Below are positions 17,724-56,991 of a stretch of 64,000 bases of DNA, piece after piece. Position 1 is the first letter of the stretch; every line of letters starts with the position of its first letter. The stretch lies in assembly GCA_043824495.1 (NCBI GenBank), contig JBDRSV010000024.1, positions 91,056-155,055 on the forward strand. The letters run 5' to 3'. Below the pieces are notes generated by a model that saw nothing but the letters and a program-made list of their open reading frames with translations, was not told where the DNA came from and did no database searches. The position numbers were made by a program, and so were the translations under genes. This stretch comes from Candidatus Aenigmatarchaeota archaeon. GTDB lineage: Archaea; Aenigmatarchaeota; Aenigmatarchaeia; QMZP01.

Positions 17724-17754
17724 ACCACATCACCTTTTCAGGCTTTGCAGATTT

Positions 17755-19629: not shown

Positions 19630-20175
19630 GGATTTTTATTCCTTAGGTTGTGAGGGAAATATGACCCTCCGGGTTTGTTTTTCGATTAGTTTCTGATTGT
19701 TTGTCGTTTACCACGTTTCCAAGTTAAGGTCCGCGAATCGCTATTTTCATTGGCATCCTCTCTTTGGGTTAATGTTGTCCGCACAAATTGCGGGATTAAA
19801 AGAAGGAAAGACACAAAAGATAGAGTATGTCTTATGTAGACTGAGAGTAAAATCATTCGAAGAATAAAGCTAATACTATTAAAACAAACATGCATGTTTG
19901 ATGTGTTTCTTTTCATGTTTTTTGTGTTAGCCAATGTACCGTTTCTATGGTTAATTGGATTGATTGAGTTGCAATCAATACAAATTTAAATGATGTTCGA
20001 ATGAGTAGCATGATTTAAATTGTATACAAAAATTGACGTTGATTCATCGTCGTTTTTTTGTGTTTTGGTATTTTTTTTGATTCTAGCTTGTCGCTTTTGT
20101 CAAGTCTTTAACTCAAGTATATAGCTTACAGGTATTTAAATGTTTTCTAACACATTTTTTTTAATTTTCTTTCTT

Positions 20176-20197
20176 TTATCCCTTTAAATAGACATAT
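20176..20197 (+). repeat. Junction motif copy e (TTATCCCTTTAAATAGACATAT)
   Basis: Read directly from the sequence. A T-run lies upstream and GC-rich block I4 lies downstream. Confidence 0.85.
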
Positions 20198-20206
20198 AAA
20201 AAGGCA

Positions 20207-20259
20207 AACGGGCGAAGATTTGGAGCCAAACTCTTCTTGATGTCTCACCTCCGCCCGTT
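20207..20259 (-). terminator. Compound hairpin next to motif copy e
   Basis: AACGGGCG (20207-20214) pairs with CGCCCGTT (20252-20259), with an inner GAAGATTTGG/CCAAACTCTTC stem. On the minus strand it is followed by TGCCTTTTTATAT. Confidence 0.4.
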
Positions 20260-21168
20260 AAATGCCGTTGTCCGGCCTATCAATTTACCCGCCGGTTAGG
20301 TGAGCACATGTGCTCGTGTCCCAGAGGCGCATGTTTTCATGCCCTCCTTTGCCGGGTTCTTACGCGAACGTGCTGCTTGACCGAGATAATGTAGCTGCCA
20401 GATTCCCCACAACCTTGTTATTGGTGGAACCGCGACAGCGGTCGGTCCAGTCCGTATGCATCGTAGCCTCACTTGGTGAAGGACTGCGAATCAAGAGACG
20501 GGGATTCAGAAGAATCCCCGTCTCACGAGTTGACGGTTGGTACGAGATATATCAAAGGAAGTCTTTATGCCATTGGGTGCATTCCGAAACCTTTAGCCTC
20601 GTCCGTCTCCGAGGGATCCTATCAAAGGTTTCATAAAGGAAATTTCATGGACCTCGTTACGATAGGATCGGAGTGGCGTAAAGCCACGGCCAGAACCTCG
20701 AGGTCCCCCAGGATAAGATCACCGTTTGAATATGAGTCAGCGGTGAACGTAAGGGTGCTGGCGATTCTTCTTCGCATTCAAACCCTCCAGGGAACACTTC
20801 GTAATTTGTGTTGTCAGCGGCTGTTTACGAATCGGCGGTGATCGTTTCCACCACGGTACATGTCGGCGTGGTGACAAACGATGAAGAAGCGACTTCAAAA
20901 CGCGCGCGGCCATTGCTCGGCGGCGGCGAATGAGCCCAGGCATTGACGGCGGTCGCGGCGGTATTCATCCAGGAAGCGACCACTGGTGACCCGCGAAGGG
21001 TCGGTAATCGGTTCATAGAGCAAGCTCCATTTCTTCCGATAGGAAAATTCCAATCCACTTTACAAACTCTCGCCTAAACAGAAAGTATTGTCACATAACT
21101 TTCCGTCGCAAAAGAGAATGTGAAGAGGAAACAATTTCGTACACCTCGTCAAGAGATCGTCTCCATTT

Positions 21169-21534
21169 TCACCCTACATGGGCTAGGCGAGAGGATAGAC
21201 CAGTTGCTGATAGAGATGTAGAGGGAACCGTTTTCATCCGAAGATCTCTCCCGTCCCTCAGGGAGTAAGTTGCTCGTCCACCAGGTTCCCATACCAAGGG
21301 AGCTGGCAACTCTGCCATTCTCTCTATCCGACTCTCTGTTGTCATCGCCACTACGGCAACAACTCTTAGCCTATCCGGCGTAGGATTATGAGAGTGTAGA
21401 GCGAATTCCTCGTTCCATGTTTGTTCTGTATCGCTGCCTGTTATGATATCCAATCCTGAAAACGGGATTGGGTCAGCGGTATAAACAATACAGGAACCAT
21501 ATATGAGGTAGCAGAGTGTCATGATTCCCAGCAT
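21169..21534 (-). CDS. Possible small secreted protein
   Basis: AAGGAG lies 5 nt upstream of the ATG, with a hydrophobic N-terminus MLGIMTLCYLIYGSCIVYTA. It is the only ORF in block I4 with a good RBS. Confidence 0.4.
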   Translation of the reverse strand: MLGIMTLCYLIYGSCIVYTADPIPFSGLDIITGSDTEQTWNEEFALHSHNPTPDRLRVVAVVAMTTESRIERMAELPAPLVWEPGGRATYSLRDGRDLRMKTVPSTSLSATGLSSRLAHVG

Positions 21535-23161
21535 GACAACTCCTTACAAGGGCACATGGTTATATGGTAAATGCTCTCTCCGTCAACAAATCGTGCCCTC
21601 TAAGACATGTTTAGGAGAGAAAGGCGACAACTCATGAAGTGTTCTTCAGGTGGACCCGTCATCACTGTTATTGCGTTGACGGCCTTCTCCTTGACCCGGA
21701 CTTAGACGTGTGGCTTTCGGTGTTTTCGCGGCGCGTTTCTGCTGTTTTGGACTACGCTTCTTGTTGCTCGGAAGCCCGTCTCGGGCACCACCGTGACACG
21801 TCATGAAAGACCTCGTTTGTGAGGAGTTCAGTTCAAGCTTGTGCTGGAACTGTTTGGAACGAGGAATTGTTACTCTTTACGGCGAGCGATTGTGTGTCAT
21901 CGTAACTCCTTGACAATGGTTTCCACAAGCTCCAAAATAAAAAAGAGCTGTTGTTTTCAAATTCAGTTGGGAATCTCCTAGCCCGCCCCCAGAACTGACT
22001 AGAGGAGATCCCCAACTTTTGTACAGCGCACCCCGTGCATTGTTTTCAGGGTGGAGGGGCCCGGCGGTCAACTGAGCCCCTCACTGGACGAATCGGTCAC
22101 AGATAACATGTTACGCATTACCGACTCGAAATCTATGCCACGGCAGTAGATGGAAGTGGTCGCATCTACCGCCGGGCTTCACGACGTTGTGCATTTTGTC
22201 GCCTTCAGCCTTACACAACGCCGTTATTTCCCCACCCACAGGGAATTTAATATCGCGGGGCCTCACTCAGGAGACCCCGCTTCCGTTGGGTTTACTACCG
22301 AATTGTTCGGTAGCGTTCTTCCACGACAGACATACGCACATGCGCACGTCTTCATTTCTTTGAGGACCTACTCATCTCCGATTTGAGTAGGTCCTCGGCT
22401 CCCCACAACCCCCCGATCAGCACCGGGAATTTTTTTGAGGGGAAATCTGAGCAGATATCTCAGACTCCCCTCCCGTCAGGTCTACCGACCAGCACTTCCG
22501 GTTGGACGCCGGAAATTCTTTATTAGAAGGGGTTTCCCCTCTCCAAGAAACCCCTTCCTCTTCGGCGTAGCGCGTCTCACGCGCTTTAGTGCATCGATCC
22601 CCACCGATCAGGTAAAACCCTTGGATGGTTCTCTCCCCGAACCCCCACTGAAATATTTTGGAACCCCTCATAGATCCCCGTAATCTCCGAGAGGTTCCGA
22701 CAGCAGCACCATACAAATGGGACTACCGTGACAATCAAAAATACCGGAATCCACCGCGTCAGAAGAGGATTCCGGTATTCTACATCGCTGGTTGTGTTGA
22801 GAGCTTACCCCTTACTGGTCTTAACGAGTATGTTACGTCGGACTTCCTTTCACCAAATATACGGGTCACTACAGAATACCCGATCGATCCGCTTTGTTGT
22901 CTTAATCTCACCAGCGGATAGTGACGCGGTTACAGCCAGCGATTTCGCCTTTATACAACAGGCGTCTCCAAACCAAAATGGAAATTGGAGTTGTTGCTTC
23001 CACACTTCCGGATTTCCCCCTCCGGTAAACTCTAAGGTACTGATAGGTGACCGCTCGTGTTTCTTGTGTTCGCAATTGCCGATTGCATCAAGCTCTTCGT
23101 AGATCTAGATCTGGAAGTAATTAGCAAACGATCACAATAAACAGACAACTGGGAGAAGTCC

Positions 23162-23788
23162 ATTTCTACCAGTACCTGGATTTTCTAACCCTCGGGAGGT
23201 GTGTACAAGCCTAAGCAGAGTTTGTCCTGTTGAATTGGCCCCGAGGGTAAGTGGCCTTCCGGAAGAGAATTGGTGAGGTCCTGTAACAGAACTCTATCTC
23301 ATTCCGGGGTAAAGCTCAAGGCACAGCCAGAAGGAGACGTATTACCTTGAGAAGTTGGTCTCCCGAGTGAAGAAATTCGAGATGTCCCATCGATGAAGGA
23401 CATCTCTTCTCCACTCGGGCTCATTCGTCAGCCTGGAAGGAGAAGTGCAAGAGTTTTCGCGCAATTACTCTCTCTCCTCCCGGGAAATTTATGACCTCCT
23501 GGTCCGAAACTTGTGCCGCGGTAAACCAGAAGGCGTAACTGCTAGGCTATGTGACGGCCACAGCAGTAGGGATCGAATCCAATACACGAAAGACAGCTAA
23601 GACTAACTCTGTCTCGTGTGGTTTACGAGTAAAATTCAGAAATCGATAGTCTTCGGCCTCTTCGAGGGAAACTGCTTAAGCGCTTAATTGCAGCGCGTTA
23701 TGTTTCCTGGTAAGTGACCTGTTCTCTAGGATGTACCGAAGGCTAACTTAGTTAGTCTCGGGAAATTCGCGTGTGATTGGTAGAAATG
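23162..23788. ncRNA. Candidate ~630-nt structured RNA (family unknown, strand undetermined)
   Basis: CATTTCTACCA (23162-23172) is complementary to TGGTAGAAATG (23778-23788). Internal helices include CCCTCGGG/CCCGAGGG and GAGATGTCC/GGACATCTC (23379-23406). No ORF. Confidence 0.35.
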
Positions 23789-23949: not shown

Positions 23950-25992
23950 TTAACCAATGAATTCAACCTTTTCAAAACTGCCGTTTTCTTCAAATTTGTC
24001 TAATGTTGATACGAAAATTATTACTTTTTTCTTGTCTTCTTTACAGATTCTAGCTGCTTGTTGTATTACCATGTTCTTGATTCTGTCTGAAGCACATATG
24101 AAATGATTGCTTTGTTTCAAGTCCTGATAAATTAATTCTCTATCATCTGTGTCTTCAACCATTATAGTTAATTCTTTTCCATCGTTCTGTAAATATATTC
24201 TGTTACCTTCTTGTTCACTCTTCCATCCGACTTCATTAAAGGTCTGCATGATACCTGTTAAGTTCAATTCTTTTTTCTGTGTTGAGTTACCAAATTTATT
24301 AGTGAAAACTTTCTCTCCTATATTTGTAAGAAAGTAATAACATAATCTATTCTTCTTAACTTTAGCATCAGCTGAATCAACTAATCCGTTATAAGTTAAG
24401 TTCTCAACCTTTTTCTTGAAAGTTGCTCCTGACATTTTTACATTTGTGTATATCTGAGATGTGTAAGCAGCACTACCATTACCAATGGTTTTCATCATAG
24501 CCCACTCTTGTTCTCCTAAATCCTCAATTGGAAGAGAGTTTATGAATTCTTCTTCCTTTACTGGAGGAGGTGAGTAGCTATCTTCTTTAGCTATTCTGTC
24601 TTTCATGTGCTCTCTGATATCATCATCTACAATAGAGTTCTTAACCAGTTTAGCCTTGTCGAATTTTACAAGGAATGGTTCTGGGAAATTCATAGAGTGT
24701 CTCAAAAGCATGAAACCGTGACCTACTGGCAGTCTTCTTAGATACTTACCTTCTTCTCTAGAATCAAGACCAAGCATGTTTGAAGCGTCTTGAATATCTG
24801 AAGTATGTTTTGTATCCAAACCTAGATTCATGTATATATGAGTAGAAGTATTACCAATTGCTGGATATGAAACTAAAGATGGATGCTGATCTATGTATAT
24901 CATTCCTAATCCTAATTCTCTAATTTCTCTAAATATTAATTCTACAACGGTTTCTGATCCTAATTTGGCAGATTTTTCTCTGTTAAGAACATGATGAGCT
25001 TCTTCCATCACTATACATCCTATGACTTCTTCTTTTCCGCCTTCTACGAGTAACCAATCTCTTATCCACTGTAGAATTATTTCTATGATAAAGCTCTTAT
25101 CATTAACATCAAGAGCATCTAATTCTAGAATTGTTACCTTTCCTTTCTTGAAGAAATCAGATGGTTTTATACCTTCTACACAGTCGAATATATGACCTGT
25201 GTCTTTGAAGCATAATGACTCTAATGGTCTTTCAGCTGTTGCTAACCAGTTTCTTTCTCTTGTTGGCAGCTTACCTTCTGCATATTCTGCTAAGTAATCT
25301 TTAAGGTCAAACAGTGTTGGATTTTTCTTTTCCTTGAAAACTCCATCTAAAGCTTTCAAGATTACGTGTCTTCCACCACCGAGTAACCAGTAAGAATGAT
25401 CGAATATTGAAGAGAACTCTTTCATCCACTGTGTTTGACTAATTCCTTTAGGACCTTTCAGTGGATTGAATTTGAAAGGAGCTACGCCTCTTCCGATTGT
25501 GTAAATATCTATTTTGTCTTTAATTTTAGTTGATAGTAAATCTTTATAATTTCTCTTAGAGAAATCAAATATCAAAACAGGAATATCCTTTTCTGCTAAT
25601 TCTTCAATTAAGTTATATGAAATATTTGTTTTACCATAACCAGATGAACCAAATATTCCTATATGTGTAAGTAAGTTTTTCTCTTCTAGCATGATTGGAT
25701 ATAAACCCTTTCTTCCGTATAAAACATCACCTAATCTAATTGTTCCTTTAGCTGCTGCTTCTTGGCTAGGAGGTTCCATTAGTACTGTATCTCTTAGATC
25801 TTCATCAGCAGAAACTGCGGCTTTTATAACATCAAGTAGTTCGAAGATTCTTTGTCTTACATCTTCGTTTCCAACTAAGTAAGCTTTACTTAATCTCAAA
25901 GCTTTGTCTTTACCCAAGATTGGAGTAAGCTTCTTAATTTCATCTGCAATTAGTTTTTCTTGAATATTAATCATTTGTACCACCCAAATCAT
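23950..25992 (-). CDS. HerA/DUF87-type P-loop ATPase with C-terminal winged-helix-like region
   Basis: Walker A GIFGSSGYGKTN and Walker B-like GCIVMEEAHHV. 680 aa. Confidence 0.7.
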   Translation of the reverse strand: MIWVVQMINIQEKLIADEIKKLTPILGKDKALRLSKAYLVGNEDVRQRIFELLDVIKAAVSADEDLRDTVLMEPPSQEAAAKGTIRLGDVLYGRKGLYPIMLEEKNLLTHIGIFGSSGYGKTNISYNLIEELAEKDIPVLIFDFSKRNYKDLLSTKIKDKIDIYTIGRGVAPFKFNPLKGPKGISQTQWMKEFSSIFDHSYWLLGGGRHVILKALDGVFKEKKNPTLFDLKDYLAEYAEGKLPTRERNWLATAERPLESLCFKDTGHIFDCVEGIKPSDFFKKGKVTILELDALDVNDKSFIIEIILQWIRDWLLVEGGKEEVIGCIVMEEAHHVLNREKSAKLGSETVVELIFREIRELGLGMIYIDQHPSLVSYPAIGNTSTHIYMNLGLDTKHTSDIQDASNMLGLDSREEGKYLRRLPVGHGFMLLRHSMNFPEPFLVKFDKAKLVKNSIVDDDIREHMKDRIAKEDSYSPPPVKEEEFINSLPIEDLGEQEWAMMKTIGNGSAAYTSQIYTNVKMSGATFKKKVENLTYNGLVDSADAKVKKNRLCYYFLTNIGEKVFTNKFGNSTQKKELNLTGIMQTFNEVGWKSEQEGNRIYLQNDGKELTIMVEDTDDRELIYQDLKQSNHFICASDRIKNMVIQQAARICKEDKKKVIIFVSTLDKFEENGSFEKVEFIG

Positions 25993-26515
25993 TAAAGATC
26001 TTTAAGATCTTATTTTCTGTTTGTAGTTGTTCCAGGAGCTCTCTTAGCTCTGTTTTTAATTCTAATCCATCTCTCCAAAAAAGAATATTTTCTTGTCTTT
26101 TTTCTTTTCTGAGAATAGAAACATCAAGTTTGAAATTTCTCTTTTCATCGATGTCTGTGATATGATTCATCATATCGTCTTTTTCTTCGATGTCTTCTTC
26201 AATTTCTTTTAAGAATGTTTTGTGGAGAACTTCTCTTTCTTTCATAGTGTTTTCAATTTCACTAACTCTTATTTGCAAGAATTCTACTTTATCGAATAAG
26301 CTTCCAATAACTAGAGGATCATCTCTTTTTAGAGCAGTGAGTTTACTTTCTTCAAATCTTGGCATTGATCTTTTCTTAATAATTTGAACTTCTCTAACTT
26401 CGGGTTCATCTAGATCAATCTCATCATGTCTAATTAAAGACTCACGTCTTCTCTTTTTTGTAATGTCTTCATACTCGTCAAGAGTTTTATAATAGGGTTC
26501 CATTAATCTGTCCAT
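25967..26515 (-). CDS. Coiled-coil protein, overlaps the start of the ATPase gene
   Basis: 182 aa, highly charged with a heptad-like E/K/L-rich sequence. Confidence 0.5.
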   Translation of the reverse strand: MDRLMEPYYKTLDEYEDITKKRRRESLIRHDEIDLDEPEVREVQIIKKRSMPRFEESKLTALKRDDPLVIGSLFDKVEFLQIRVSEIENTMKEREVLHKTFLKEIEEDIEEKDDMMNHITDIDEKRNFKLDVSILRKEKRQENILFWRDGLELKTELRELLEQLQTENKILKIFNDLGGTND

Positions 26516-27342
26516 AATAATTACCTCGAGTGACCATTTGTCACTATCTGATAGTTAAAATATGTATAAAGGGTTTATAAAGCTTTCGGTTAGCTTGCAG
26601 TGTGCTGTTTTTGAGCGTAAAAATCGTGTACGAAAGACAATTTTCTTGGGTTTCCATGACTTTTGTGCCAACGAAAGACATATTCTGTCTTTAGTAAGAG
26701 AGTTAATAAAGATTTCTGTCTCGCGCCTTATAAAGGATCCGAATTGGATATTTTATATAGTAATTAATTACTATTGTAGAGATCTTTATTTACTTAAGTC
26801 TTTACATAAATAATTCTCAAATACTTTTTGTCTTTGCTAAAGTTTAATGCAGATTTTCCTCGAAACTTTTGTGGAAATTCTTGAAATCAAATGTCTTCTA
26901 GTTTTGCTAGAGCTTTTGAAGACATGGAAACTCTCATAAAACCCCAACCGAAAAGTATTTAAACCCTTTGACTATAATTTCACTATAGATTAGTGACAAC
27001 AAATTAAGAAATGTCTGAGTTATGTGTGGTGTCAAATCCTACATAACTATCTTTACAATCTACGCAACTTTGAATAAAAAGAATTTCGGGTTAAACTCGC
27101 AATTCTAAACTCAGAGAAATTGAGTGCACAGGAATTTAGGCGCGGCCTAAAATCCCCATAAGAAATCCAAAAAAATGACACGCTTTGTGTCAAAAAATGT
27201 GATTTGAGGGGGTTTGATTTCCTTAGCTCTGAGTATCTACTTTTCGAAAACCACGAAGACTCGCGTAACAATTCTAAGCAATAAATATAGTGAAATTCCA
27301 GACTTCTGTAGACTTTCGCTGTCTGACATAGAAATTAACAAG

Positions 27343-27353
27343 TTGACAATAAA
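27343..27353 (+). promoter_or_regulatory. TTGACAATAAAC box (sigma70 -35-like), first of three copies
   Basis: The same box recurs at 29367 (CTGACAATAAAC) and 30278 (TTGACAATTAAC), each 35-55 nt upstream of a start codon. Confidence 0.4.
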
Positions 27354-27377
27354 CGGAAACTTCTGGGAGGGATTGTC

Positions 27378-27740
27378 ATGAGAAATATCATGAGCTGTGT
27401 TTTCCTGCTGCTCACATTATTCCTGGTGAGTTGTGCGAAAAGTGGTCCGGAGCTGGGGAGTGATATCCGGATCAGTGGAACAATCGTCGACATGAGCGAA
27501 GGAGGTAGTAGGGATTTCCTGATCCAGTCCGGAGGAAAACTCTACCATTTCGGTACTCGACTGCAATTTAAATGGAGTAAACTTCGTGCGGGACATTACG
27601 TCACCGTGGATGGGAAGTTTGGGGGACCGTGCGAGGAAGCCTCAATGTTCAGACGCTACATGTACGACGACGAAGGGAACTTCATCAAGTCCCTCGAGGT
27701 CTATGACATCATCCATGTTTCGAACGTGGAGAGGCAGTGA
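27378..27740 (+). CDS. Putative lipoprotein
   Basis: MRNIMSCVFLLLTLFLVSCAKSG (lipobox LVSC), with GGGAGGG upstream. Confidence 0.6.
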   Translation: MRNIMSCVFLLLTLFLVSCAKSGPELGSDIRISGTIVDMSEGGSRDFLIQSGGKLYHFGTRLQFKWSKLRAGHYVTVDGKFGGPCEEASMFRRYMYDDEGNFIKSLEVYDIIHVSNVERQ

Positions 27741-28098
27741 TCCCACTGAGTTCATCCAATTCATCGGGTGGACCCAGATGAGATTATTGTCTAAAGGCTA
27801 AATCAGCAGGCCTTGAATTGTTGGTAGGGATCATTGGAAGATTCCCAAAAACATGGCAAGGAGGGCAACATGTCGCAGGGAACCAAAAACACCAAAGACA
27901 CAGGAACAAGAGCGTTTCTGGTTATCGACGGAACTACAGGAGACCTCATTCCTGTGAAAGCATCGTCTGGACGAAAAGCTGAGCAAATCGCCGGCAGCGT
28001 AACCAGACAATCCCGCAAATAAAATTACCCACTGTGAATTCCCCAGGAGTATCATCCGCCCGGAAGATACTCTGTTCTCCCCCATACTACCATAGGCC

Positions 28099-28138
28099 AC
28101 ACGGAGCTCATCAGGTTTTCACTTGGTGGGCTCCAGTG
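28099..28138 (+). promoter_or_regulatory. Conserved intergenic hairpin element, copy 1
   Basis: CACGGAGCTCAT...GGTGGGCTCCAGTG. Shares the GAGCTCAT / GGTGGGC core with copies 2 and 3 but has a different, still complementary, outer stem. Confidence 0.45.
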
Positions 28139-28240
28139 AGATCTTTGGTGGTTAACGTTCCATAACCGTTTCATTCACAACCTTTTGCCGACCTTGTCTG
28201 CATTGCAGCTCAAGGAAGTGTGTAAAGGAAGGAGAGTGTC

Positions 28241-28942
28241 ATGTTATTGCATGTAACAGTAATAAGCCGCGGAGACAGAACAACGATCGATGTTCCCAGA
28301 ACAGAATTCAACTGGGATACCAATCAATGTCGCGTAGTTGAAGGTGCAGAGGAAGCTGAAAGAAATCTCGGGGTGGCGGAGAATCTCGAAATCCGTAAAC
28401 CCGCGGCTTACCAGGGACCCTATTTATACTGTATTGTAGAGGTGGGGTTCGAGGAAATTTGTTTTCCCCCGACTTTCCTCAAGTGGATCGAGAATGTTCC
28501 CGAGGATGAGAAAAGAGCCATCCTTATCGTTCCCACCAAAACCATCCGAAAGGCCGATGATAGTCACTATATGGGATCTATAGATCGTTATAGGTATTAT
28601 CCTCATGGTGAAGTCTTCCTGATTGGTCGCAGAATCATCGTGAGGAACATCTACCTATCACCTGATAACATCAAGATGGTGGTGGATAAAATCCTTGCCC
28701 GACTGAGTGACGGCCTGTTCCTCCGGTTGGCCTTTGAGTTTCTCCAGGCTACGCCGATCAGTGACAATCCTACGGTGACTGGAGAACATATCACCATGTT
28801 GGATAATCTCTTCACGGGGACGCGTTCCCTTCGGAGAGGAGATTCAACTCGTCGCGAACGGTTCAATCATGTTCGGGCCGTGATTGGACATATGGCCAAA
28901 CACGGGATAGTTCTGTCTGGCAAGATCGAACCCGTGAAGTAA
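28241..28942 (+). CDS. Hypothetical protein
   Basis: 233 aa with AAGGAAGGAGAG upstream. No family recognised. Confidence 0.6.
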   Translation: MLLHVTVISRGDRTTIDVPRTEFNWDTNQCRVVEGAEEAERNLGVAENLEIRKPAAYQGPYLYCIVEVGFEEICFPPTFLKWIENVPEDEKRAILIVPTKTIRKADDSHYMGSIDRYRYYPHGEVFLIGRRIIVRNIYLSPDNIKMVVDKILARLSDGLFLRLAFEFLQATPISDNPTVTGEHITMLDNLFTGTRSLRRGDSTRRERFNHVRAVIGHMAKHGIVLSGKIEPVK

Positions 28943-28995
28943 TCAACGGCTTGGAAACCAAGTCAAATCAACGACAATGAAAGTTGAGGTGTAAT

Positions 28996-29316
28996 ATGAA
29001 TAGGCGAATACAGAGTATGATTGTGATGACTGCGACTTTGATAGCTGTTGCAGTCTTTCTCCAAGTCTCACAGCTTCACGCGGCACATTTGATGGCAACC
29101 GCAATTGCAATTGCGGTTGTGGTGATGATCGTTGTTAACATGGGAAGAGTTCCCAACACTCGGCAGAAGTTTCGGAACTTCTCTGTCGGAGCCGTTTTCG
29201 GGAGCATCTTCCTGTGGGAGTTGTTCAAGGTTACGTTCTTGAATCACCCTGCGGCTCTTTGGAGTGTGGTTGTACTCGGAGCTGCGGCAGTCTCATTTCT
29301 GACGTTCCGCCGGTAG
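28996..29316 (+). CDS. Hypothetical membrane protein
   Basis: Three hydrophobic helices. GAGGTG lies 4-5 nt upstream of ATG 28996. Confidence 0.55.
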   Translation: MNRRIQSMIVMTATLIAVAVFLQVSQLHAAHLMATAIAIAVVVMIVVNMGRVPNTRQKFRNFSVGAVFGSIFLWELFKVTFLNHPAALWSVVVLGAAAVSFLTFRR

Positions 29317-29330
29317 TACTGAAGTTCACC

Positions 29331-29361
29331 GGGGATCCCGATCAATCTGGTTGGGATCCCC
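29331..29361 (+). terminator. Hairpin terminator (GGGGATCCC...GGGATCCCC)
   Basis: 9 bp perfect stem. A homologous copy lies at 30241-30273. Confidence 0.6.
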
Positions 29362-29414
29362 TCAACCTGACAATAAACTGTTGTTAAATGTTCCATTACA
29401 CCAAGGAGGGCGCA

Positions 29415-30233
29415 ATGCGTCACCAACGTTTCATCACCACAGTACTGGCACTCATGTTCTTGACTGTGCCGGCAATGTTCAGCAGTGCGGTTCTGGCCGA
29501 TCCGATTTCATCCGGAGACGGTCAAATGTATGTGGTCCAACAGGGAGATTGGTTGACGCGGCCGATCATCCCGACACTCTACTCGGATGTGTTGAAGCCA
29601 GGCGACTTGAAGAGTGCTCTCTGGATCGCTGACATCTTCGATACACTCAACATTAACATCACCCACCGCGACAAAATTCGGGCGTATGATACCATCATGG
29701 CGCCGTCATTCGCGGCGTTGAAGAAGTACAAACATCTCGCACCCGCCGACGTGGTCATCAACCTGTTCGCCACGTATGATATCGCGTCCATGGAACTTGT
29801 GGACGCCGAGTTTGTAAGAAAGCGCATCGAGGACTTTGAGGGTACTTACTGGTACAAAAATCGAGCCGCGTGGGCCCGAATTTTCGGAGTCGGTAATGGC
29901 ACGTATGTCTGCGGTGACACCGTGATGCCGTTCTCATGGTTCATGAGCTGCAATACGGACGGTAATACGGGAATGACTATCTCCATCTCCATGGACGAAG
30001 GAGATCTCACCGCAGTTCGCAAGGTTCCAGGTACACGTAACGGATTCTGGGGAGCCAGTCGTGACAATAAGTTCACATACGTGGGCTTCGGCAACGACTG
30101 GATCGATCGTTGCGACTGGAATGACGAGACCGAGAGCTGGGACATTCCACCAGTTCTGAATGAGATCGTCGGAACTCTCAACAACTTTCCATTCGTCCAG
30201 TATATGACCGTCGTCGCGTACGAACTGGAATAG
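29415..30233 (+). CDS. Hypothetical secreted protein (paralog of 30334..31659)
   Basis: Signal peptide MRHQRFITTVLALMFLTVPAMFSSAVLA, with AAGGAGGG upstream. The C-terminal half aligns with the next gene. Confidence 0.65.
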   Translation: MRHQRFITTVLALMFLTVPAMFSSAVLADPISSGDGQMYVVQQGDWLTRPIIPTLYSDVLKPGDLKSALWIADIFDTLNINITHRDKIRAYDTIMAPSFAALKKYKHLAPADVVINLFATYDIASMELVDAEFVRKRIEDFEGTYWYKNRAAWARIFGVGNGTYVCGDTVMPFSWFMSCNTDGNTGMTISISMDEGDLTAVRKVPGTRNGFWGASRDNKFTYVGFGNDWIDRCDWNDETESWDIPPVLNEIVGTLNNFPFVQYMTVVAYELE

Positions 30234-30240
30234 TTGTTAC

Positions 30241-30273
30241 AGGGGATCCTGACCAATTCGGTTGGGATCCCTT
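30241..30273 (+). terminator. Hairpin terminator, duplicate of 29331-29361
   Basis: AGGGGATCC...GGATCCCTT, followed by the same CAACTTGACAAT box. Confidence 0.55.
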
Positions 30274-30333
30274 CAACTTGACAATTAACGTAACATGTTA
30301 ACAATGAATACCAACAGAGAAGGAGAAAGTCAA

Positions 30334-31659
30334 ATGTGTAACATCATCATCCGTACCATCGTGGCACTGGCACTCATGGTTCTGATCGTGCCGGCCATCA
30401 CCAACATCGCAATTGCGGACGGAACGCCGTGTGGTCTCACCGTAGGTAATGGCAACGACATCGATCGCGACTTCGTTGCATTCCTCAACAAAGAAGGAAT
30501 CAGATGGTTAACAATCGAGGAATTCGTTGAGTGCTACTCCCAACTGATCGGTCCAGGTAGTACCATGTTGAGCACCACTCGGGGATATGGCTGGGGATAT
30601 ATTGACGTTCCTTTCAAGTTTGGCGATTCGGTCGCGTCTATAGTGAACATGGAGATCATGCCAGGCGTCCGGATCAATATGGCTTGGGATCAAGCGGTCA
30701 TCTTCTACAAATATGCGAATAATCATGGAATGCATATTCTGAAGAAGACGGAGAATGACCGTGAGGTTCCGGCCTGGAGCGGCTTGATTGATGAAGCTAC
30801 GGTGCGTCAACATGTCAACGGCTTCGAAGTGTCCGCGCAGATTCCGAGTGATGTTCTGGAATCGGATGTTGCGATTATCCGGATGCGAGATTTAAAGGAC
30901 GCCTACTTGGCCGAGAACACCGACGTTATCGAGTCTTACCTCATCGAGAAGTTTGACCTCGACGACGATTCCGAGCCGTATTCTGACAATCGGCCAAATA
31001 TATTTCATCGCAGTGGCGAAGTCTTACTGGACTCGGAGATGTTCTTCGTGTATGAAGGTCTGGAAATTCTCAATCTCATCATCAATGATCGGTGGATTGG
31101 TGTACGATTCCCCGGATCGACCTATATCCACTTCATCAACATCGGACCGAGAAAAGTCCACGACTTGAATGCCAACTTCGTCGAGACGAAAACTCCGAAC
31201 AACACCGGCGGTCAGATCAGTATCCCGCAGGATGTGATCGAAAAGATGACGTGGATCGATTCCGTCTATTCGGATAGGATGTCCCCGAATCCGATGTTAG
31301 GTTTCGGAAACGGTGAGTACCTGGCGAGCTCTGGGATCGTTTCGTTCGCGTGGGTTGCCTGGACCAACACCGATGGCAACCTCCAGTTCTATCTCAATGT
31401 TCTCCTTAACATTGATCATCAGGTGACGATCGAGACTGTGTCTCACTACGGTGGGCCTGATGTTTGGAGGGCGTGGAGTCCGAATCAGACCTGCACAGAG
31501 GTGGAGACTGGAAACGGCTGGTGTTATATTCACTGTTCCCAGTCGGAAAGTGGACCTCGAATCTGCGACTATAGACAAGCCTTGGACGATGCAGTCGCGG
31601 CGTTCAATGGCATCGATTTCTTCACGAACATGAAGGTGATCATGTACACGGTGAAGTAA
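30334..31659 (+). CDS. Hypothetical secreted protein (paralog of 29415..30233)
   Basis: Signal peptide MCNIIIRTIVALALMVLIVPAITNIAIA. GFGNGEYLASSGIVSFAWVAWTNTDGN aligns with GVGNGTYVCGDTVMPFSWFMSCNTDGN in the previous gene. Confidence 0.65.
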   Translation: MCNIIIRTIVALALMVLIVPAITNIAIADGTPCGLTVGNGNDIDRDFVAFLNKEGIRWLTIEEFVECYSQLIGPGSTMLSTTRGYGWGYIDVPFKFGDSVASIVNMEIMPGVRINMAWDQAVIFYKYANNHGMHILKKTENDREVPAWSGLIDEATVRQHVNGFEVSAQIPSDVLESDVAIIRMRDLKDAYLAENTDVIESYLIEKFDLDDDSEPYSDNRPNIFHRSGEVLLDSEMFFVYEGLEILNLIINDRWIGVRFPGSTYIHFINIGPRKVHDLNANFVETKTPNNTGGQISIPQDVIEKMTWIDSVYSDRMSPNPMLGFGNGEYLASSGIVSFAWVAWTNTDGNLQFYLNVLLNIDHQVTIETVSHYGGPDVWRAWSPNQTCTEVETGNGWCYIHCSQSESGPRICDYRQALDDAVAAFNGIDFFTNMKVIMYTVK

Positions 31660-31947
31660 AGCCGAACGCCACGAATTACTAATCCGCTCTTCTTCCCAAA
31701 GAAGTGTGGCTAGTGTGAAAGGAGTATGGGAAGGTTCCACAGTAGTAGCATCAACGGCAAAAAGTAAAAGACAAAAAAATGAAGGCCAAACCCGAGGAGG
31801 AACTCGAAGTGAAGACGAAACGAAGGTCATGCCAATATCCCATTTCGCCCATGATGGCGACTCATATTCTCATAGTCTGACCGGCCGCCGGCGACGCCAC
31901 GGGCCTCTTATATAGTTAGCGGGGCCCATCGCCAATGCAGTCAAAAT

Positions 31948-31975
31948 CCCGGGTAGGCTTCAACCCCTACCCGGG
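31948..31975 (+). terminator. Hairpin terminator CCCGGGTAGG...CCTACCCGGG
   Basis: 10 bp perfect stem. Confidence 0.6.
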
Positions 31976-31976
31976 G

Positions 31977-32028
31977 TTCCAAATGAGCTCATCTAGTTCA
32001 GATATTTTCTAGGTGGGCCCATTTGGAA
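31977..32028 (+). promoter_or_regulatory. Conserved intergenic hairpin element, copy 2
   Basis: TTCCAAATGAGCTCAT...AGGTGGGCCCATTTGGAA. Confidence 0.45.
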
Positions 32029-32092
32029 TTGTAAATGATTGTTGACTGTTCAATGAGCGTTCCGAAAGGAACATTGCAAGGAGATTTTTATC

Positions 32093-32557
32093 ATGACACA
32101 GCAGATGACATCAGTACCAGATGGTTGGGGCGGAGCAGGTGGCGACAGTCTCGGCACAGATGCACTCGAGCTTCTGAAGAAAATGGGATTCGACAATGCA
32201 ATGGGACAAGCGTTGCTCGGCAGCTTTAATCCACAGGGTTTCGTGGATGCGCTTCTCACGTTCCGACCGTTCCCGGTTGGCGGAGTCTCTCCCGAAGCTC
32301 GGAACGAGAGCAGAGAAGCTCAGTGGATTTATCTCACATGGATCTTCACCAGTCGGCAGAGAGCCTCCTTTCCCGTCGAAGGGGTGAGTGGCCTTGCTGA
32401 CTTCGTGGATATTGTCCGGAAAGCACAGAGCGATGCGGACGCGAACGAACATGCAGTTCGAATCTTGTCCAGGTTTGGGTGTGTCGATCTCCTCGTTGGT
32501 GAAGGTCGGACCTTCTTGCACACGAAAGCCATCGATTTCGCTAATTCCCAAACGTAA
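32093..32557 (+). CDS. Hypothetical protein
   Basis: 154 aa with AAGGAGA upstream. Confidence 0.55.
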   Translation: MTQQMTSVPDGWGGAGGDSLGTDALELLKKMGFDNAMGQALLGSFNPQGFVDALLTFRPFPVGGVSPEARNESREAQWIYLTWIFTSRQRASFPVEGVSGLADFVDIVRKAQSDADANEHAVRILSRFGCVDLLVGEGRTFLHTKAIDFANSQT

Positions 32558-32579
32558 GTCCGCGACATCACCAACCAAT

Positions 32580-32612
32580 CCCGGGAACAAGACAGTTCAA
32601 TCTGTTCCCGGG
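32580..32612 (+). terminator. Hairpin terminator CCCGGGAACA...TGTTCCCGGG
   Basis: 10 bp perfect stem. Confidence 0.6.
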
Positions 32613-32665
32613 TTCCAAATGAGTTCATGTGGTTTGATTTCTTGACTAGGTGGGCTCATTTGGAA
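32613..32665 (+). promoter_or_regulatory. Conserved intergenic hairpin element, copy 3
   Basis: TTCCAAATGAGTTCAT...(TTGACT)AGGTGGGCTCATTTGGAA, with an 11 bp outer stem. Confidence 0.45.
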
Positions 32666-32757
32666 TTGAGTTGTAGTAGAACCATAACCCATTCACGACC
32701 TTTTGTCGACCCTGTCTGATATCAGTTCAGGGAAGAATCTAAAGGAAGGAGAATTCA

Positions 32758-34749
32758 ATGCATTCACTCCAAGAAGTAAAAGAACACATCAAGACAACGA
32801 TGTGCAAAGCGGTTCAAGTGAATCGCTGGATGATGTGGATCGCGCTCGTCGTCATATGTATTGTGGCGATTGAGTTGTTCGTTTGGTTGCCTTCACTGCC
32901 AGAAGAGGCGCAAGACGTCCTTTCCCCATTCATAGAAGGTGGAAACAGGAATGCAGGCACGTTATTACTCCACTTCTTCTGTTTCATGGGTGCATTGGTG
33001 TCTATCTTCTTCAAAATCTTCGGTCCGATCACAAGATCTTATGATAATACACTTTTCTGGGAACTCCATCTGGGTGGAACAAAAAGGATCGGATTCCGCC
33101 TGGGTGACTGGCCTACTGGTGTGTTCATTGAAGCGGCAGACGTTCTCAGTGATTTACCAGCGAATGTCAGGAAAAGAATTCCGTGCACCCAGTATGCTGT
33201 TTCTCGAATTAAAAGCGTAACGGAATTCGACGACAGCGGTAGAGCCATCGTCCCACGGGATGAGAGTGTGTCTTCTGTGAGATTCGCCACAGTGGATGAT
33301 GGTCGACCGGGAACGCTCGACTTGGATAGGGTGTTCTCCTGGGCGCATAAGTACATCCGAGGCTATTATATCTGCCTGGCCTTTACATGTCTGTTCCTGG
33401 CTTGGCCGGTGATAACCGGCTACTCGATCGCGAGCTTCATGCACGACCTCCCGGTCCAGATCCACGACATCGCTGTTGACCCATCTCAGAATTCGACGAA
33501 AGTAATCGTCAGTTCTGATCGCAATGTCCGGTATGACTCAAGAATCGAGGTTGCAGATGACTGTGTCTGCTCCCGATTCATTCTGAACATATACCCGGCA
33601 AAGTGTGATTTCCTGGAGGAGATCTTTGCCAGTGACTATGTAATGAGAGGGTATTATGGGGCTCGAACCAACACCGGGCAGCTCTCCGAAGCAACTGGAT
33701 GGAATGGTGTCAGGCAAATCAACATCAGACAAGTTGGTGACACCATCAAGATTGTACTCGGCCTGAAAGATATGGTTGAGTACGCAATGAGTCGCTCGTC
33801 AGAGCACGGCACAAAGGATCTGGTCGTTGGTCTGGACACGCCAGTCGAGTCCAAACAGACATCGGGCGAATATTGGACCGCGAACAAGTTCGCAGATCAG
33901 TACGAAGTTCCTGACAACAATGCCCGTCGCGAGTCATCGTGTGGTGAATGGAAGTCGTTCGTCAGATTTGTATCTGCGGATAGTAACAACGTATACTTCT
34001 CTGCCAGATACGGTGGAGTGTACAGAGTGGATATGAATGGATGGATTGACACGATCGTCCCAAACAACGAGGTTGATTACTACCACACGCCAGTGAGTAG
34101 CGGTAATAAACTCGCTGGCATCCATGATGGGAATGATCTCTGTATTGTGGATATGGATACCAGAAAGGTCAAGAACGTCACCCATGGACAAATATGGGAC
34201 GTCGATTGGGTCTCGGACACCGGACTCGTGTTCTGGAGAGATCTTGATGGTGTCTGTTACTACTCCCTCTCTGCGGACTCGTCTTGGTCTTTGAACAAAA
34301 AGGCCAAATTCCCATCTGTGTGTGGGGATAAGATATTCTACCTCACACACTTACGCACCCATCGGGATGAGTGGGATTCCACACTAATCTGGGAGATGAG
34401 CCTTGACGGGTCTTCCAGAACCGTAGCTAGGTTGAAGGGAGGCTACTCACACCTGAGTATGTCTTCGGACTGCTCAATTGCAGTTCTGAAAGAGCCGTAT
34501 AGTTCTGACCGCACGTGGGTCAATAGAATCAAAACATTCTCCTTCAACGACTGCATTATGACAACACTGACGGAGTGTGGTGAGTCTCCAAGGATCACTA
34601 CAGACAATCGAATTGTTTATGTCAAGTTGTATCCTGTGGAGGGGCGTGGGGATTTCAACTCGAACTCAGAAGTCCGGATCATGGATCTGGACGGCAGAAA
34701 CGACACCTTGATTGTCAACAGAGAGGAACTCCGGAAGTTTCCGATGTAA
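32758..34749 (+). CDS. Membrane-anchored protein with C-terminal TolB-like beta-propeller region
   Basis: N-terminal TM helices. The C-terminal half has repeated short beta-strand/Asp-Gly motifs resembling PD40/WD40-like repeats (weak). Confidence 0.6.
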   Translation: MHSLQEVKEHIKTTMCKAVQVNRWMMWIALVVICIVAIELFVWLPSLPEEAQDVLSPFIEGGNRNAGTLLLHFFCFMGALVSIFFKIFGPITRSYDNTLFWELHLGGTKRIGFRLGDWPTGVFIEAADVLSDLPANVRKRIPCTQYAVSRIKSVTEFDDSGRAIVPRDESVSSVRFATVDDGRPGTLDLDRVFSWAHKYIRGYYICLAFTCLFLAWPVITGYSIASFMHDLPVQIHDIAVDPSQNSTKVIVSSDRNVRYDSRIEVADDCVCSRFILNIYPAKCDFLEEIFASDYVMRGYYGARTNTGQLSEATGWNGVRQINIRQVGDTIKIVLGLKDMVEYAMSRSSEHGTKDLVVGLDTPVESKQTSGEYWTANKFADQYEVPDNNARRESSCGEWKSFVRFVSADSNNVYFSARYGGVYRVDMNGWIDTIVPNNEVDYYHTPVSSGNKLAGIHDGNDLCIVDMDTRKVKNVTHGQIWDVDWVSDTGLVFWRDLDGVCYYSLSADSSWSLNKKAKFPSVCGDKIFYLTHLRTHRDEWDSTLIWEMSLDGSSRTVARLKGGYSHLSMSSDCSIAVLKEPYSSDRTWVNRIKTFSFNDCIMTTLTECGESPRITTDNRIVYVKLYPVEGRGDFNSNSEVRIMDLDGRNDTLIVNREELRKFPM

Positions 34750-34830
34750 GCGTGTAGTTATCATTCACACCCCGCCTGGATTCAATTCCAGGCGGGGTTG
34801 ATCATGAAATAAAGAGAAGGGGAGTGTACC

Positions 34831-35835
34831 ATGATAAAAATGTTTGGTAAACTGCTCTGCGGAGTTGCCATGGTTGTAGGCGGGTTGATCGCAGTGCTAG
34901 CGACGATCACTTTCTTCGCAGTCATTGGGAACATGGTAATCGATACTTACAAAATTGGCATGCATTTCTCTCCGTTGTTACCGACAGCCTTCATCAGCCT
35001 TTGGGTCGCCGCCGTCATGCTTTGGATTACCACCCTCGGCGCGAAAGGCCTCGGATGGTCGGTATCATGCCATTTGAAATTCAACATCGGTTACGGTTCC
35101 ATGCTGCTGGGAATCGTCGGCGTAATTGTGATCCTGGGATACTACACATATCTCTTCACCTTTGCTGACATCCCAGGACAACTGGTTGTCCTCAGTATTG
35201 ACGGTATGGAGACGTTCAGTCGGGTGGAAGTTCGTCTCATGAAAATCATGGATTTGGTGCCTCTACTATTCGCATCCATTTGCACCGGATTCACCGGACT
35301 GGCTCTCTGGTGGGGACGAATACAATCAATCCGGTTTCCGTTCTCCCGTTGGTTCGGAATCGCTGTCGCGATGATTCTTGTTATTGTCATGGCAGTGCCT
35401 GTTCTTGGTCAGGCCGATTCCACAGGCTTCACTGAGGCCAAGACCCATCTTTGTGGGATGCAGATGAATTATGCTGAATATTTCGGTGAGTTGTTCGCGG
35501 CGCGTTTCGCATCCCGGGAACTTGATATCAATATCTTCGATGCCGATGAAGAGTGGATGTGGAGAATGGTTGATTCAACATTCTACCGAAGGGATACACT
35601 CTTTGCTGTCAGAGACGGGTTCTCGTCGGTATTTAATATGGCCGAAGAGAAGGCCGAGCTTGTGGCCGCGACTGATCTGGCGAGAATTGTCGGGAAAATC
35701 AGGGGAATCCCGGAAGGTGAACGCGTTCCTTTAAGGTATTGTTTCCGTGGGGGACAGTTCATCAAGAAAGATACAAACAGAGGTTACCATGCGGTTGTAG
35801 TGCAGATTCTTCCGCTGTCTGAGAATCTGGAGTGA
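34831..35835 (+). CDS. Hypothetical polytopic membrane protein with cytoplasmic C-terminal domain
   Basis: 334 aa with about 6 TM helices, and GGGGAG upstream. Confidence 0.6.
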   Translation: MIKMFGKLLCGVAMVVGGLIAVLATITFFAVIGNMVIDTYKIGMHFSPLLPTAFISLWVAAVMLWITTLGAKGLGWSVSCHLKFNIGYGSMLLGIVGVIVILGYYTYLFTFADIPGQLVVLSIDGMETFSRVEVRLMKIMDLVPLLFASICTGFTGLALWWGRIQSIRFPFSRWFGIAVAMILVIVMAVPVLGQADSTGFTEAKTHLCGMQMNYAEYFGELFAARFASRELDINIFDADEEWMWRMVDSTFYRRDTLFAVRDGFSSVFNMAEEKAELVAATDLARIVGKIRGIPEGERVPLRYCFRGGQFIKKDTNRGYHAVVVQILPLSENLE

Positions 35836-35973
35836 AACCAACATTATCCTTTCAACATTTGATGGAGGACGGGTCATGAAACTAGTCTTAAATCGTAGGC
35901 ATCTTATAGATCCCGCCAGTGTCATTGGGCCACGCGTGAACTGGTTGTTCTCCTGAATGGCCAAGAGGTTCAG

Positions 35974-36222
35974 GTGCGTCCTATCGACCAGACGATAATT
36001 CTGATCGGACGCGATCCGGAATGTGACGTAATACTCGATAATCGCGCCGTCGACTTCTTCCATGCTCACATTGATTTCGGCGAGAATTTTGTAGTAATTG
36101 ACAACGTGTCACTCAACGGCACGTTTGTCAACGGAGAAAAGGTCGAGAAAGCGGTTCTCCGTCCTGGTGATGTGATCACAATAGCCAGGTATGAGATTCA
36201 CATCCGGTCCCTCCGGAAGTAG
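35974..36222 (+). CDS. FHA-domain protein (start uncertain; domain extends upstream of the annotated GTG)
   Basis: IILIGRDPECDVILDNRAVDFFHAHI...NVSLNGTFVNGEKV...PGDVITIARYEIHI is FHA-like. The frame is open back to 35899. Confidence 0.65.
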   Translation: MRPIDQTIILIGRDPECDVILDNRAVDFFHAHIDFGENFVVIDNVSLNGTFVNGEKVEKAVLRPGDVITIARYEIHIRSLRK

Positions 36223-36250
36223 ACGACGCGATGGTAGTCTTGTTCCAATT

Positions 36251-36279
36251 CCGTACAGGTGTTTACAAAATCTGTGCGG
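36251..36279 (+). terminator. Imperfect hairpin after the last gene of block I5
   Basis: CCGTACAG (36251-36258) pairs with CTGTGCGG (36272-36279) with one mismatch, followed by GATTTGTATT. Confidence 0.45.
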
Positions 36280-36286
36280 GATTTGT

Positions 36287-36308
36287 ATTGTCTAATTAAA
36301 GGGATATA
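36287..36308 (-). repeat. Junction motif copy f (reverse complement TATATCCCTTTAATTAGACAAT)
   Basis: Read directly from the sequence. GC-rich block on the left, AT-rich DNA on the right. Confidence 0.9.
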
Positions 36309-36935: not shown

Positions 36936-37589
36936 ATGACAAAACCAATCGCACTATCGGCAAGTAGCATAAGACTTTTCCTAGAGTGCCCTCGATGCTT
37001 CTGGCTGCATATAAACAAGAAGGTAAGAAGGCCTTCGGGAGCTTTCCCATCGTTGCCAGCGGGTATGGACAAGATACTCAAGATACACTTTGATGAGTAC
37101 AGGGAGAAAGGCAAGATACCAAAAGAGCTAGAAGGCAAATTCAGCGGCAAGCTTTTTGGTGATACAGAAATATTGGGTGTGTGGCGTAACAACAGAAAAG
37201 GGCTAAGACATACAGACAAAAAGAGTGGCATTATTCTCATGGGAGCGTTAGATGACCTCTTTGTCACCAATAATGGACAGTTTGCACCATTGGACTTCAA
37301 AACAAGAGGCTATCCCCTCAAGGAAGACACACATGAACACTATCAGCACCAGATGGACATTTACTCATATCTTCTAGAAAAGAACAACATGAAGACTGCA
37401 GGCTATGCAATACTCATATTCTACCATCCGAAACGTGTTACAAGCACATGCAATGTTGAGTTTAATGCAGACCCTTTGAAGGTGAAGACCAGCATAAAGG
37501 ACGGTGAGAAGATATTTTTGGATGCTGTAAAATGCCTTTCGGGGAAAGAGCCCAATCCTGGCAAGGACTGTGGGTTTTGTAGATGGTGA
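36936..37589 (+). CDS. PD-(D/E)xK nuclease, Cas4/RecB-like with Cys cluster
   Basis: N-terminal ECPRCFW, central LDFKTRGY, and C-terminal C...CGFCRW cysteines as in Fe-S Cas4/AddB-type nucleases. No CRISPR array or other cas genes nearby. Confidence 0.55.
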   Translation: MTKPIALSASSIRLFLECPRCFWLHINKKVRRPSGAFPSLPAGMDKILKIHFDEYREKGKIPKELEGKFSGKLFGDTEILGVWRNNRKGLRHTDKKSGIILMGALDDLFVTNNGQFAPLDFKTRGYPLKEDTHEHYQHQMDIYSYLLEKNNMKTAGYAILIFYHPKRVTSTCNVEFNADPLKVKTSIKDGEKIFLDAVKCLSGKEPNPGKDCGFCRW

Positions 37590-56990: not shown

Positions 56991-56991
56991 A

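Follow-up and report, generated by a model that had tools for sequence, protein, structure and literature searches.

Stem-loops that recur between genes transcribed in the same direction are known from several systems. The one described here, hairpin B, lies in a 64,000-nt stretch (hereafter the window) of contig JBDRSV010000024.1, which belongs to a metagenome-assembled genome (MAG) of Candidatus Aenigmatarchaeota, a DPANN archaeon. The repetitive extragenic palindromes (REPs) of enterobacteria, and the bacterial interspersed mosaic elements (BIMEs), are imperfect palindromes of 35-40 nt located inside operons, often after stop codons, which carry strand-specific mismatches and act as barriers to 3′ exonucleases. 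REPs are found in hundreds of dispersed copies, have a GTAG foot and are linked to the REP-associated tyrosine transposases (RAYTs). In phage T7, RNase III hairpins of ~20 bp with an internal bubble stand between the early genes of one long transcript, and their cleavage, for which host RNase III is needed, leaves a stabilising 3′ hairpin. The promoter early stem-loops (PeSLs) of T4-type phages are composite terminator/promoter cassettes (PMC2839356, PMC4122927). Lastly, integron attC sites have been reported from genomes of Aenigmatarchaeota themselves (PMC9668308).

Hairpin B has something in common with each of these. It is, like the REPs and BIMEs, an imperfect palindrome of the kind found in transcribed operons, with strand-specific mismatches, but its four copies all lie within 5 kb, with none in the remaining 59 kb of the window, and they have no GTAG foot. 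As in T7, a series of related stem-loops separates co-directional genes; however, B0 and B1 (the copies are numbered B0 to B3 along the + strand) form 15-17 pairs with no bubble, compared with 20 for B2 and 22 for B3. The PeSLs are likewise intergenic stem-loop modules, located in variable regions next to unrelated genes that lack database relatives, but they conserve a sigma-70 early promoter and have a simple G-run/C-run stem, whereas hairpin B conserves the core of its stem and no promoter consensus was detected. It resembles the attC sites (PMC9668308) in that hairpins separate co-directional cassettes and that structure is conserved over sequence. From its sequence, hairpin B is best filed as a very local addition to the broad class of repeated intercistronic RNA stem-loops. 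With a probability of roughly 0.45, we propose that it is a recognition stem-loop acting in the sense-strand RNA, read by a common factor within a multi-gene transcript.

Four copies of one hairpin

Hairpin B is a stem-loop of 40-55 nt present in four intergenic copies, all on the + strand, that together span 5 kb (Table 1; the extents of B1 to B3 were taken from RNA folds). A preliminary description of this DNA, made from the sequence alone, had reported three of them. All three are where it placed them, but the most degenerate copy, B0, had been overlooked. The cores that it named, GAGCTCAT (in B3, GAGTTCAT) and GGTGGGC, are present in those three elements; B0 combines GAGTTCAT with GGTGGAC. 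Its account of the stem closings has to be corrected for B2, which closes with TTCCAAATGAG/CCCATTTGGAA, with one A.C mismatch, and not with CTCATTTGGAA.

The pattern GAG[CT]TCAT-N8-24-GGTGG[AG]C occurs four times, on the + strand only, where dinucleotide shuffles lead one to expect 0.01 occurrences per window and 0.002 per island. Pattern matches at 21632 and 31416 (inside gene) were rejected, as neither folds into the B hairpin. A covariance model built from all four copies, R1, gives them 54-57 bits. With filters off, the best unrelated match in the 64 kb scores 11.9 bits, and the only other matches above 12 bits are the reverse strands of the B loci themselves. No copy was detected with R1 in the other high-G+C islands of the window. 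The conserved halves are separated by 11, 13, 19 or 20 nt depending on the copy, and the loops (4-12 nt) and outer stems are wholly different between B0/B1 and B2/B3.

The repeat does not result from a segmental duplication, because the proteins encoded on either side of the copies are unrelated and the similarity between the B1 and B3 regions ends at the start codons. All-against-all BLASTP comparisons of the island proteins detected no similarity among the genes that flank B copies, and in a self-BLAST of the island the repeats were confined to the intergenic modules. The preliminary description had named such a duplication as the finding that would undermine its proposal; the outcome was negative. 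Hairpin B is thus real, neither a chance occurrence nor a duplication artefact.

We also looked for relatives in other genomes. No Rfam 15 family matches the window at gathering score, and even with E values up to 5 nothing was found over B, the accompanying hairpins A and C or the leader motif X (all described below) in the region 27300-36300. The Rfam comparison called for in the preliminary description therefore yielded no family at either threshold. The B core pattern has 57 matches in viral contigs, all of them single; those that fold are accounted for by the self-complementarity of the pattern. It has at least 120 matches in representative genomes, in unrelated taxa and single among the matches listed. 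One hundred of these genome loci were scanned with R1, which gave 20-27 bits and no second copy at any locus. Compared with the 54-57 bits of the B copies, these public matches were judged to be due to chance. BLAST searches of the island DNA against phages and plasmids gave no match. Several known structures were also considered and rejected: a selenocysteine insertion sequence (SECIS) after the UGA stop of the first island gene, g120, on account of a further in-frame stop three codons on, and kink-turn (K-turn), H/ACA and bulge-helix-bulge (BHB) motifs, since direct reading of the sequence revealed no internal loops of the required form. Judging by these sequence comparisons, hairpin B belongs to no described family and has no clear relative elsewhere.

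Pairing and strand asymmetry

The claim that the stem varies in sequence while its pairing is kept is borne out by the four-copy alignment, in which 85.9% of the cells are standard pairs, as opposed to 28-47% when the 3′ partners are slid by 1-3 columns. Five stem pairs remain paired although both partners have changed, and the observed values are reached in only 2-3 of 500 column shuffles. Coming from four related, non-independent sequences of a single genome, these counts suggest that pairing is maintained but are not conclusive. The same B helix was independently recovered by RNAalifold. Only three positions of the nine-pair core are variable. Two pairs, 13-41 and 16-38, are U.G throughout, and pair 12-42 is C-G, U-A or U.G depending on the copy; position 10-44 is an A-U pair in half of the copies and A.C in the other half.

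The + strand RNAs of B1 to B3 are predicted to be 7-18 kcal/mol more stable than their - strand counterparts (Table 1), because each G.U pair becomes an A.C mismatch in the opposite strand. When folded with DNA parameters, the hairpins reach only -5 to -12 kcal/mol and the strand bias nearly disappears; the B0 hairpin does not form at all (z ~0).

A second hairpin family of the island, family C, consists of GGGGATCCC..GGGATCCCC followed by TCAACYTGACAATWAAC, and is found at 29331-29361 and 30242-30272 (with flanks, 29331-29378 and 30242-30289). Its two copies are 86% identical over 44 nt, and the paralogous proteins encoded directly downstream of them are 24-32% identical. The sequence TGACAATAAAC is found again upstream of the first island gene, at 27344, and the hairpin of the homologous locus L180, described below, is preceded by a similar sequence, TTTGACAATAC. 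Family C shares the + strand G.U wobble bias of hairpin B. Together with the weakness of the DNA folds, this bias in both families points to structures that act in the sense RNA.

Gene gaps and transcription signals

All B copies lie outside open reading frames (ORFs) and are oriented like the genes. They occupy four of the ~nine intergenic gaps of the island, in a constant order: stop codon, optional G+C-rich hairpin A, hairpin B, leader of 60-100 nt, ribosome-binding site and start codon. Their reported location upstream of the gene starts at 28241, 32093 and 32758 is correct, at the distances listed in Table 1. A2 and A3 abut B2 and B3, respectively, and have a common outer CCCGGG stem with different inner stems.

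The copies had been described as lying just after a terminator, which is not supported. The upstream hairpins A1 to A3 are G+C-rich and have no T-run, and a scan of the + strand for intrinsic terminators detected no such site at any A or B hairpin. Likewise, the 3′ flanks of the B copies (GAGAUUAUUG, GAGAUCUUUG, GGAAUUGUAA and GGAAUUGAGU) contain no U-tract. As for promoters, a scan for sigma-70-like sites found none at the elements and none at a constant position relative to B; the promoter overlap that the preliminary description had asked about was not observed. The TTGACT that it had placed in the loop of B3 is present (32642-32647), but it consists of the last two bases of the loop and four bases of the stem. 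On direct reading of these gaps, no A+T-rich boxes typical of archaeal promoters were seen, and a sigma-54 promoter was rejected since the GG-N10-GC spacing is absent. With neither a promoter nor a T-tailed terminator at the elements, the simplest reading of the sequence is that transcription passes through the B gaps and that the cluster would give rise to a single long transcript or a few of them.

The left border of the island carries a host-type promoter-like box (TATTTAAACCC.., 26956-26986), which is directed inwards and may drive a long transcript through the island. Another box, at 50829-50859, is 77% similar to the former and ends at the leaderless-looking ATG of ribBA (50858).

A conserved leader and the homologous locus L180

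The leaders that follow B1 and B3 are ~80% identical over ~100 nt, up to the start codon; mean column identity is 82% over the whole B1/B3 alignment, hairpins included. They contain a succession of conserved blocks that we call motif X (Table 1). In the window, its first block reads CATTCAC-N3-CTTTTGYCGAC. The hairpins that follow, CCUUG-U-CUGC..GCAG-CU-CAAGG and CCCUG-U-CUG..CAG-UU-CAGGG, differ by compensatory changes, and in the AAAGGAAGGAG block CCUUU is able to pair with the AAAG​G beside the ribosome-binding site.

Motif X precedes g233 and the unrelated gene g663. An exhaustive HMMER search with the g233 protein returned a single relative, P0004 (31% identity over 126 residues); a profile search starting from g233 added nothing, and no relative was found in viral contigs. 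The P0004 gene is carried by a 1,277-nt Logan contig from another sample, L180, and the blocks of motif X recur upstream of it (L180 307-393, CATTCAC-N5-CTTTGGTCGAC). Its hairpin differs in sequence (CUGUACA..UGUAUGG) and again ends in GG-AAG, and CAAAG pairs with CUUUG. The general form of motif X is thus CATTCAC, CTTTKGYCGAC, a variable hairpin, GGAAG and AAAG, and L180 has kept this non-coding sequence and its pairing despite the low identity of the proteins. The motif X pattern has no match in representative genomes or in viral contigs; two metagenome matches were rejected, one because it looks eukaryotic and the other because it is apparently coding DNA. Motif X may act as a structured leader RNA; alternatively, it may combine a promoter with an operator. 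A TTCACN-17-TACAAT promoter can be fitted in L180 but only poorly in the window.

L180 is the sole cross-genome evidence, and it bears on motif X, not on hairpin B. At the place of B it has a much longer, branched hairpin with an outer stem CAGCUCUAUGUUCA/UGAGCAUAGAGCUG, whose arms loosely resemble the B core (AUG..UUCA / GGUG..CAU).

The island and its genes

The window has a background of ~33% G+C that harbours archaeal housekeeping genes, including those of arginyl-tRNA synthetase, a YGR210-like GTPase, L7Ae and an intein-bearing inositol-1-phosphate synthase. Proteins identical to those encoded here are recorded solely in this NCBI MAG and in one Logan assembly (run SRR26275509). Four islands of higher G+C content interrupt this background (Table 1). 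The third one, which carries hairpin B, has ~ten genes over ~9 kb, all on the + strand, at ~49% G+C. These genes have bacterial-style ribosome-binding sites, and signal peptides and a lipobox are found among their products. The B island is foreign to this DPANN archaeal genome. Its neighbours are a HerA-like ATPase, in which DUF87 is the sole Pfam domain seen, a Cas4-like nuclease, a type IIG restriction-modification enzyme and a DDE transposase; therefore, the island occupies a variable region rich in mobile and defence genes.

The island proteins are largely without relatives. Searched against 5.8 billion proteins, g663 and a 454-residue protein each match only themselves, and of the three island proteins searched, g233 alone has a relative, P0004. 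The g154 protein forms a cluster of its own at 90% identity and has no match in the family libraries, though remote homologues were not searched for. Six proteins that were looked up form singleton clusters. Among the island proteins, Pfam, PHROGs, NCBIfam and PADLOC detected only an FHA domain, in the product of the last small gene, and a weak KwaA-like match. A possible 50-residue gene with a strong ribosome-binding site, located between B0 and B1, is missing from the Logan gene call, and the NCBI locus-tag numbering leaves space for one gene.

Elsewhere in the window, a bacterial type IX secretion sorting domain is found in a protein of one of the islands (17755-19629), and another high-G+C island encodes an M32 carboxypeptidase. 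The proteins encoded at 15316-16422, 17755-19629 and 58128-59030, in two other islands, were all three found to be singletons. The intein that splits the myo-inositol-1-phosphate synthase gene (47035-49560, - strand) has a LAGLIDADG endonuclease domain.

Table 1. Features of the window, in window coordinates. Distances are to the flanking stop and start codons; z values compare the + strand fold with shuffles.
Feature	Position	Strand	Characteristics	Location	RNA fold (kcal/mol)
B0	27741-27783	+	15 pairs; 54.3 bits	1 nt 3′ of g120 stop; 87 nt 5′ of ATG 27870	+ strand -15.9, - strand -16.5; z -2.2
B1	28100-28138	+	17 pairs, one bulged A, 4-nt loop; 57.5 bits	78 nt 3′ of stop; 103 nt 5′ of ATG 28241	+ strand -25.3, - strand -16.5; z -5.1
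B2	31975-32030	+	~20 pairs, one A.C mismatch, 12-nt loop; 55.0 bits	316 nt 3′ of stop; 63 nt 5′ of ATG 32093	+ strand -28.0, - strand -21.3; z -6.0
B3	32611-32667	+	22-23 pairs, six of them G.U; 54.5 bits	54 nt 3′ of stop; 91 nt 5′ of ATG 32758	+ strand -30.2, - strand -12.3; z -8.0
Hairpin A1	28046-28073	+	G+C-rich, no T-run	5′ of B1	
Hairpin A2	31948-31975	+	CCCGGGTAGG..CCTACCCGGG	abuts B2	
Hairpin A3	32580-32612	+	CCCGGGAACA..TGTTCCCGGG	abuts B3	
Motif X copy 1	28172-28240	+	CATTCAC-N3-CTTTTGCCGAC, hairpin CCTTG..CAAGG, GGAAG, AAAGGAAGGAG (ribosome-binding site)		
Motif X copy 3	32690-32757	+	same blocks as copy 1; hairpin CCCTG..CAGGG (compensatory change)		
g120	27378-27740	+	120 residues, lipoprotein-like, no homologue	first island gene, 5′ of B0	
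Possible gene	27870-28022	+	50 residues, strong ribosome-binding site	between B0 and A1/B1	
g233	28241-28942	+	233 residues	3′ of B1 and motif X	
g154	32093-32557	+		between B2 and A3/B3	
g663	32758-34749	+	663 residues	3′ of B3 and motif X	
HerA-like ATPase with small partner gene	23950-26515	-		flanks B island	
Cas4-like PD-(D/E)XK nuclease	36936-37589	+		flanks B island	
Type IIG restriction-modification enzyme	39330-42056	-		flanks B island	
DDE transposase	44028-45038	+		flanks B island	
G+C-rich islands (four)	1-3000, 15000-23500, 27000-36250, 57000-59000		47-58% G+C	B in the third	
27-nt motif	3004-3030, 15241-15267, 17660-17686, 20175-20201, 36282-36308, 56967-56993	-, +, +, +, -, +	TATATCCCTTTAAWTAGACAATAYAAA		
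27-nt motif, weaker copy	17221-17247				

Possible roles of hairpin B

Since the core and its wobbles are fixed while the outer stem and loop vary, and since the structure belongs to the sense strand and lies between cistrons, hairpin B may be a recognition hairpin in a multi-gene message. It would fold in the sense RNA of co-directional foreign genes without database relatives, within the untranslated stretches between them. A single common factor would recognise it, presumably through the invariant core 5'-GAGYUCAU / GGUGGRCYC-3' with its two fixed U.G wobbles, the outer stem and loop being free to change. Most likely, B would serve either as an endonuclease site or exonuclease barrier, so that segments of the transcript would be cut or stabilised, as with the T7 hairpins and the REPs, or as the target of an RNA-binding protein that co-regulates the downstream genes. 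The RNA nature of hairpin B is better supported than any of these specific functions. That a long hairpin holds the same place at L180, 5′ of the shared motif X, is in keeping with this proposal.

Several observations weigh against a recognition stem-loop. The L180 hairpin does not have the B core and is not matched by R1. A TTGACA-17-TATGTT box overlaps its 5′ arm; if transcription starts from it, the RNA would lack part of the stem, and the hairpin at L180 may have a role at the DNA level. B0 folds weakly and without strand asymmetry. Common ancestry or gene conversion among four copies of one genome could mimic constraint. The host is an archaeon and the signals of the island look bacterial; B may be a relic of the donor with no function here. 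Finally, no candidate binding protein or nuclease was identified.

An unlikely though serious contender is that hairpin B is a duplicated intergenic cassette, or a selfish palindrome akin to REPs or to miniature inverted-repeat transposable elements (MITEs), and that the modules A, B and X, by recombination, spread inside the island or arrived with donor DNA. In that case, B would be at most a generic stabiliser of mRNA 3′ ends or a substrate for gene shuffling, like the PeSL cassettes. The mosaic kinship of the copies is in line with this idea: the outer stem TTCCAAATGAG is common to B2 and B3, as is the CCCGGG foot of their A hairpins, and B1 and B3 share the downstream leader. The flanking genes are unrelated and without database relatives, as is the case with PeSLs (PMC4122927), and the island lies among mobile and defence genes. 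Nevertheless, no copies were found beyond 27741-32667 in the 64 kb, the other high-G+C islands included. Direct reading revealed no target-site duplications at B, which led us to reject a MITE, and B0/B1 have no terminal repeats in common with B2/B3. GTAG is not conserved at the foot of the palindrome, being seen only downstream of B3, and no sigma-70 promoter is attached to it. The core is far better conserved than the rest, unlike in the neutral decay of duplicates, and the public pattern matches are single and chance-like.

It is distinctly unlikely that the B copies are plain transcription terminators or 3′-end hairpins, in tandem with hairpin A and alike by descent. They do lie 3′ of stop codons, directly after a G+C-rich hairpin, and their stems are stable as RNA. 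However, archaeal termination relies on oligo-T runs, and the copies have neither a U-tract nor an intrinsic-terminator-like site. Furthermore, a generic terminator has no need of an invariant core with fixed wobbles, and B2 is remote from the preceding stop codon.

That the B copies are palindromic DNA operators recognised by a common dimeric regulator, such as the g233 product, is quite improbable. Imperfect inverted repeats do stand upstream of four genes, an upstream motif is conserved between g233 and its sole homologue, as is frequent among autoregulated regulators, and the L180 palindrome overlaps a promoter-like box. Nevertheless, the spacing of the half-sites ranges from 11 to 20 nt. 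In all copies the two halves differ at the same two positions (T on the left, the equivalent of C on the right), which is a signature of wobble and not of symmetry. The outer arms covary without conservation of their sequence, no promoter consensus is found at a fixed distance, and no DNA-binding domain was detected in the island proteins. The structure prediction of the g233 protein, performed to test the idea of a regulator, had a predicted local distance difference test (pLDDT) score of 35 and was unusable. The preliminary description had proposed either a cis-regulatory RNA or a palindromic operator; the wobbles and strand energies favour an RNA, which might be regulatory or else a processing or stability signal, and the half-site spacing disfavours the operator.

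A motif at the island borders

A 27-nt motif, TATATCCCTTTAAWTAGACAATAYAAA, coincides precisely with one border of each high-G+C island. G+C content is 30-39% over the 500 nt 5′ of it and 47-54% over the 500 nt 3′ of it. Following the direction of the island genes, one meets a stop codon, a variable hairpin, the 27-nt motif and then host DNA. Three motif-bordered units follow each other in tandem in 15241-23500, like an array of cassettes. Canonical attC boxes are missing from the motif, and neither viral contigs nor the supplement of the paper on archaeal integrons (PMC9668308) gave a match to it.

We regard it as highly improbable that the islands are foreign cassettes acquired by a site-specific capture other than that of integrons, in which the 27-nt motif would mark the junction and hairpins B and C would be portable expression or processing signals, or scars of joining. 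If true, this would represent a new route by which an archaeon acquires and expresses genes of bacterial type. Barely credible is the proposal that the B copies are attC-like recombination sites of folded single-stranded DNA bounding captured cassettes: co-directional genes without database relatives separated by structure-conserved hairpins, the attC sites reported in Aenigmatarchaeota (PMC9668308) and the several foreign high-G+C islands each bounded by the 27-nt motif would agree with it, but neither strand has a RYYYAAC or GTTRRRY box within 20 nt of a copy, no paired R''/R' structure of 50-150 nt is found anywhere in the window, B conserves its inner stem and not outer boxes, the DNA folds are weak or, for B0, not formed, no integrase domain was seen among the island proteins scanned against Pfam, and B bounds only some of the genes.

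Significance

The wider significance of hairpin B is limited, as the element is confined to one uncultured genome; the foreign islands with their 27-nt border motif are a more unusual feature and perhaps the more valuable lead. If hairpin B is a true recognition signal, an acquired gene cluster in a DPANN archaeon would bring along its own post-transcriptional signals, and the conserved RNA core would provide a handle for fishing out the protein that reads it.

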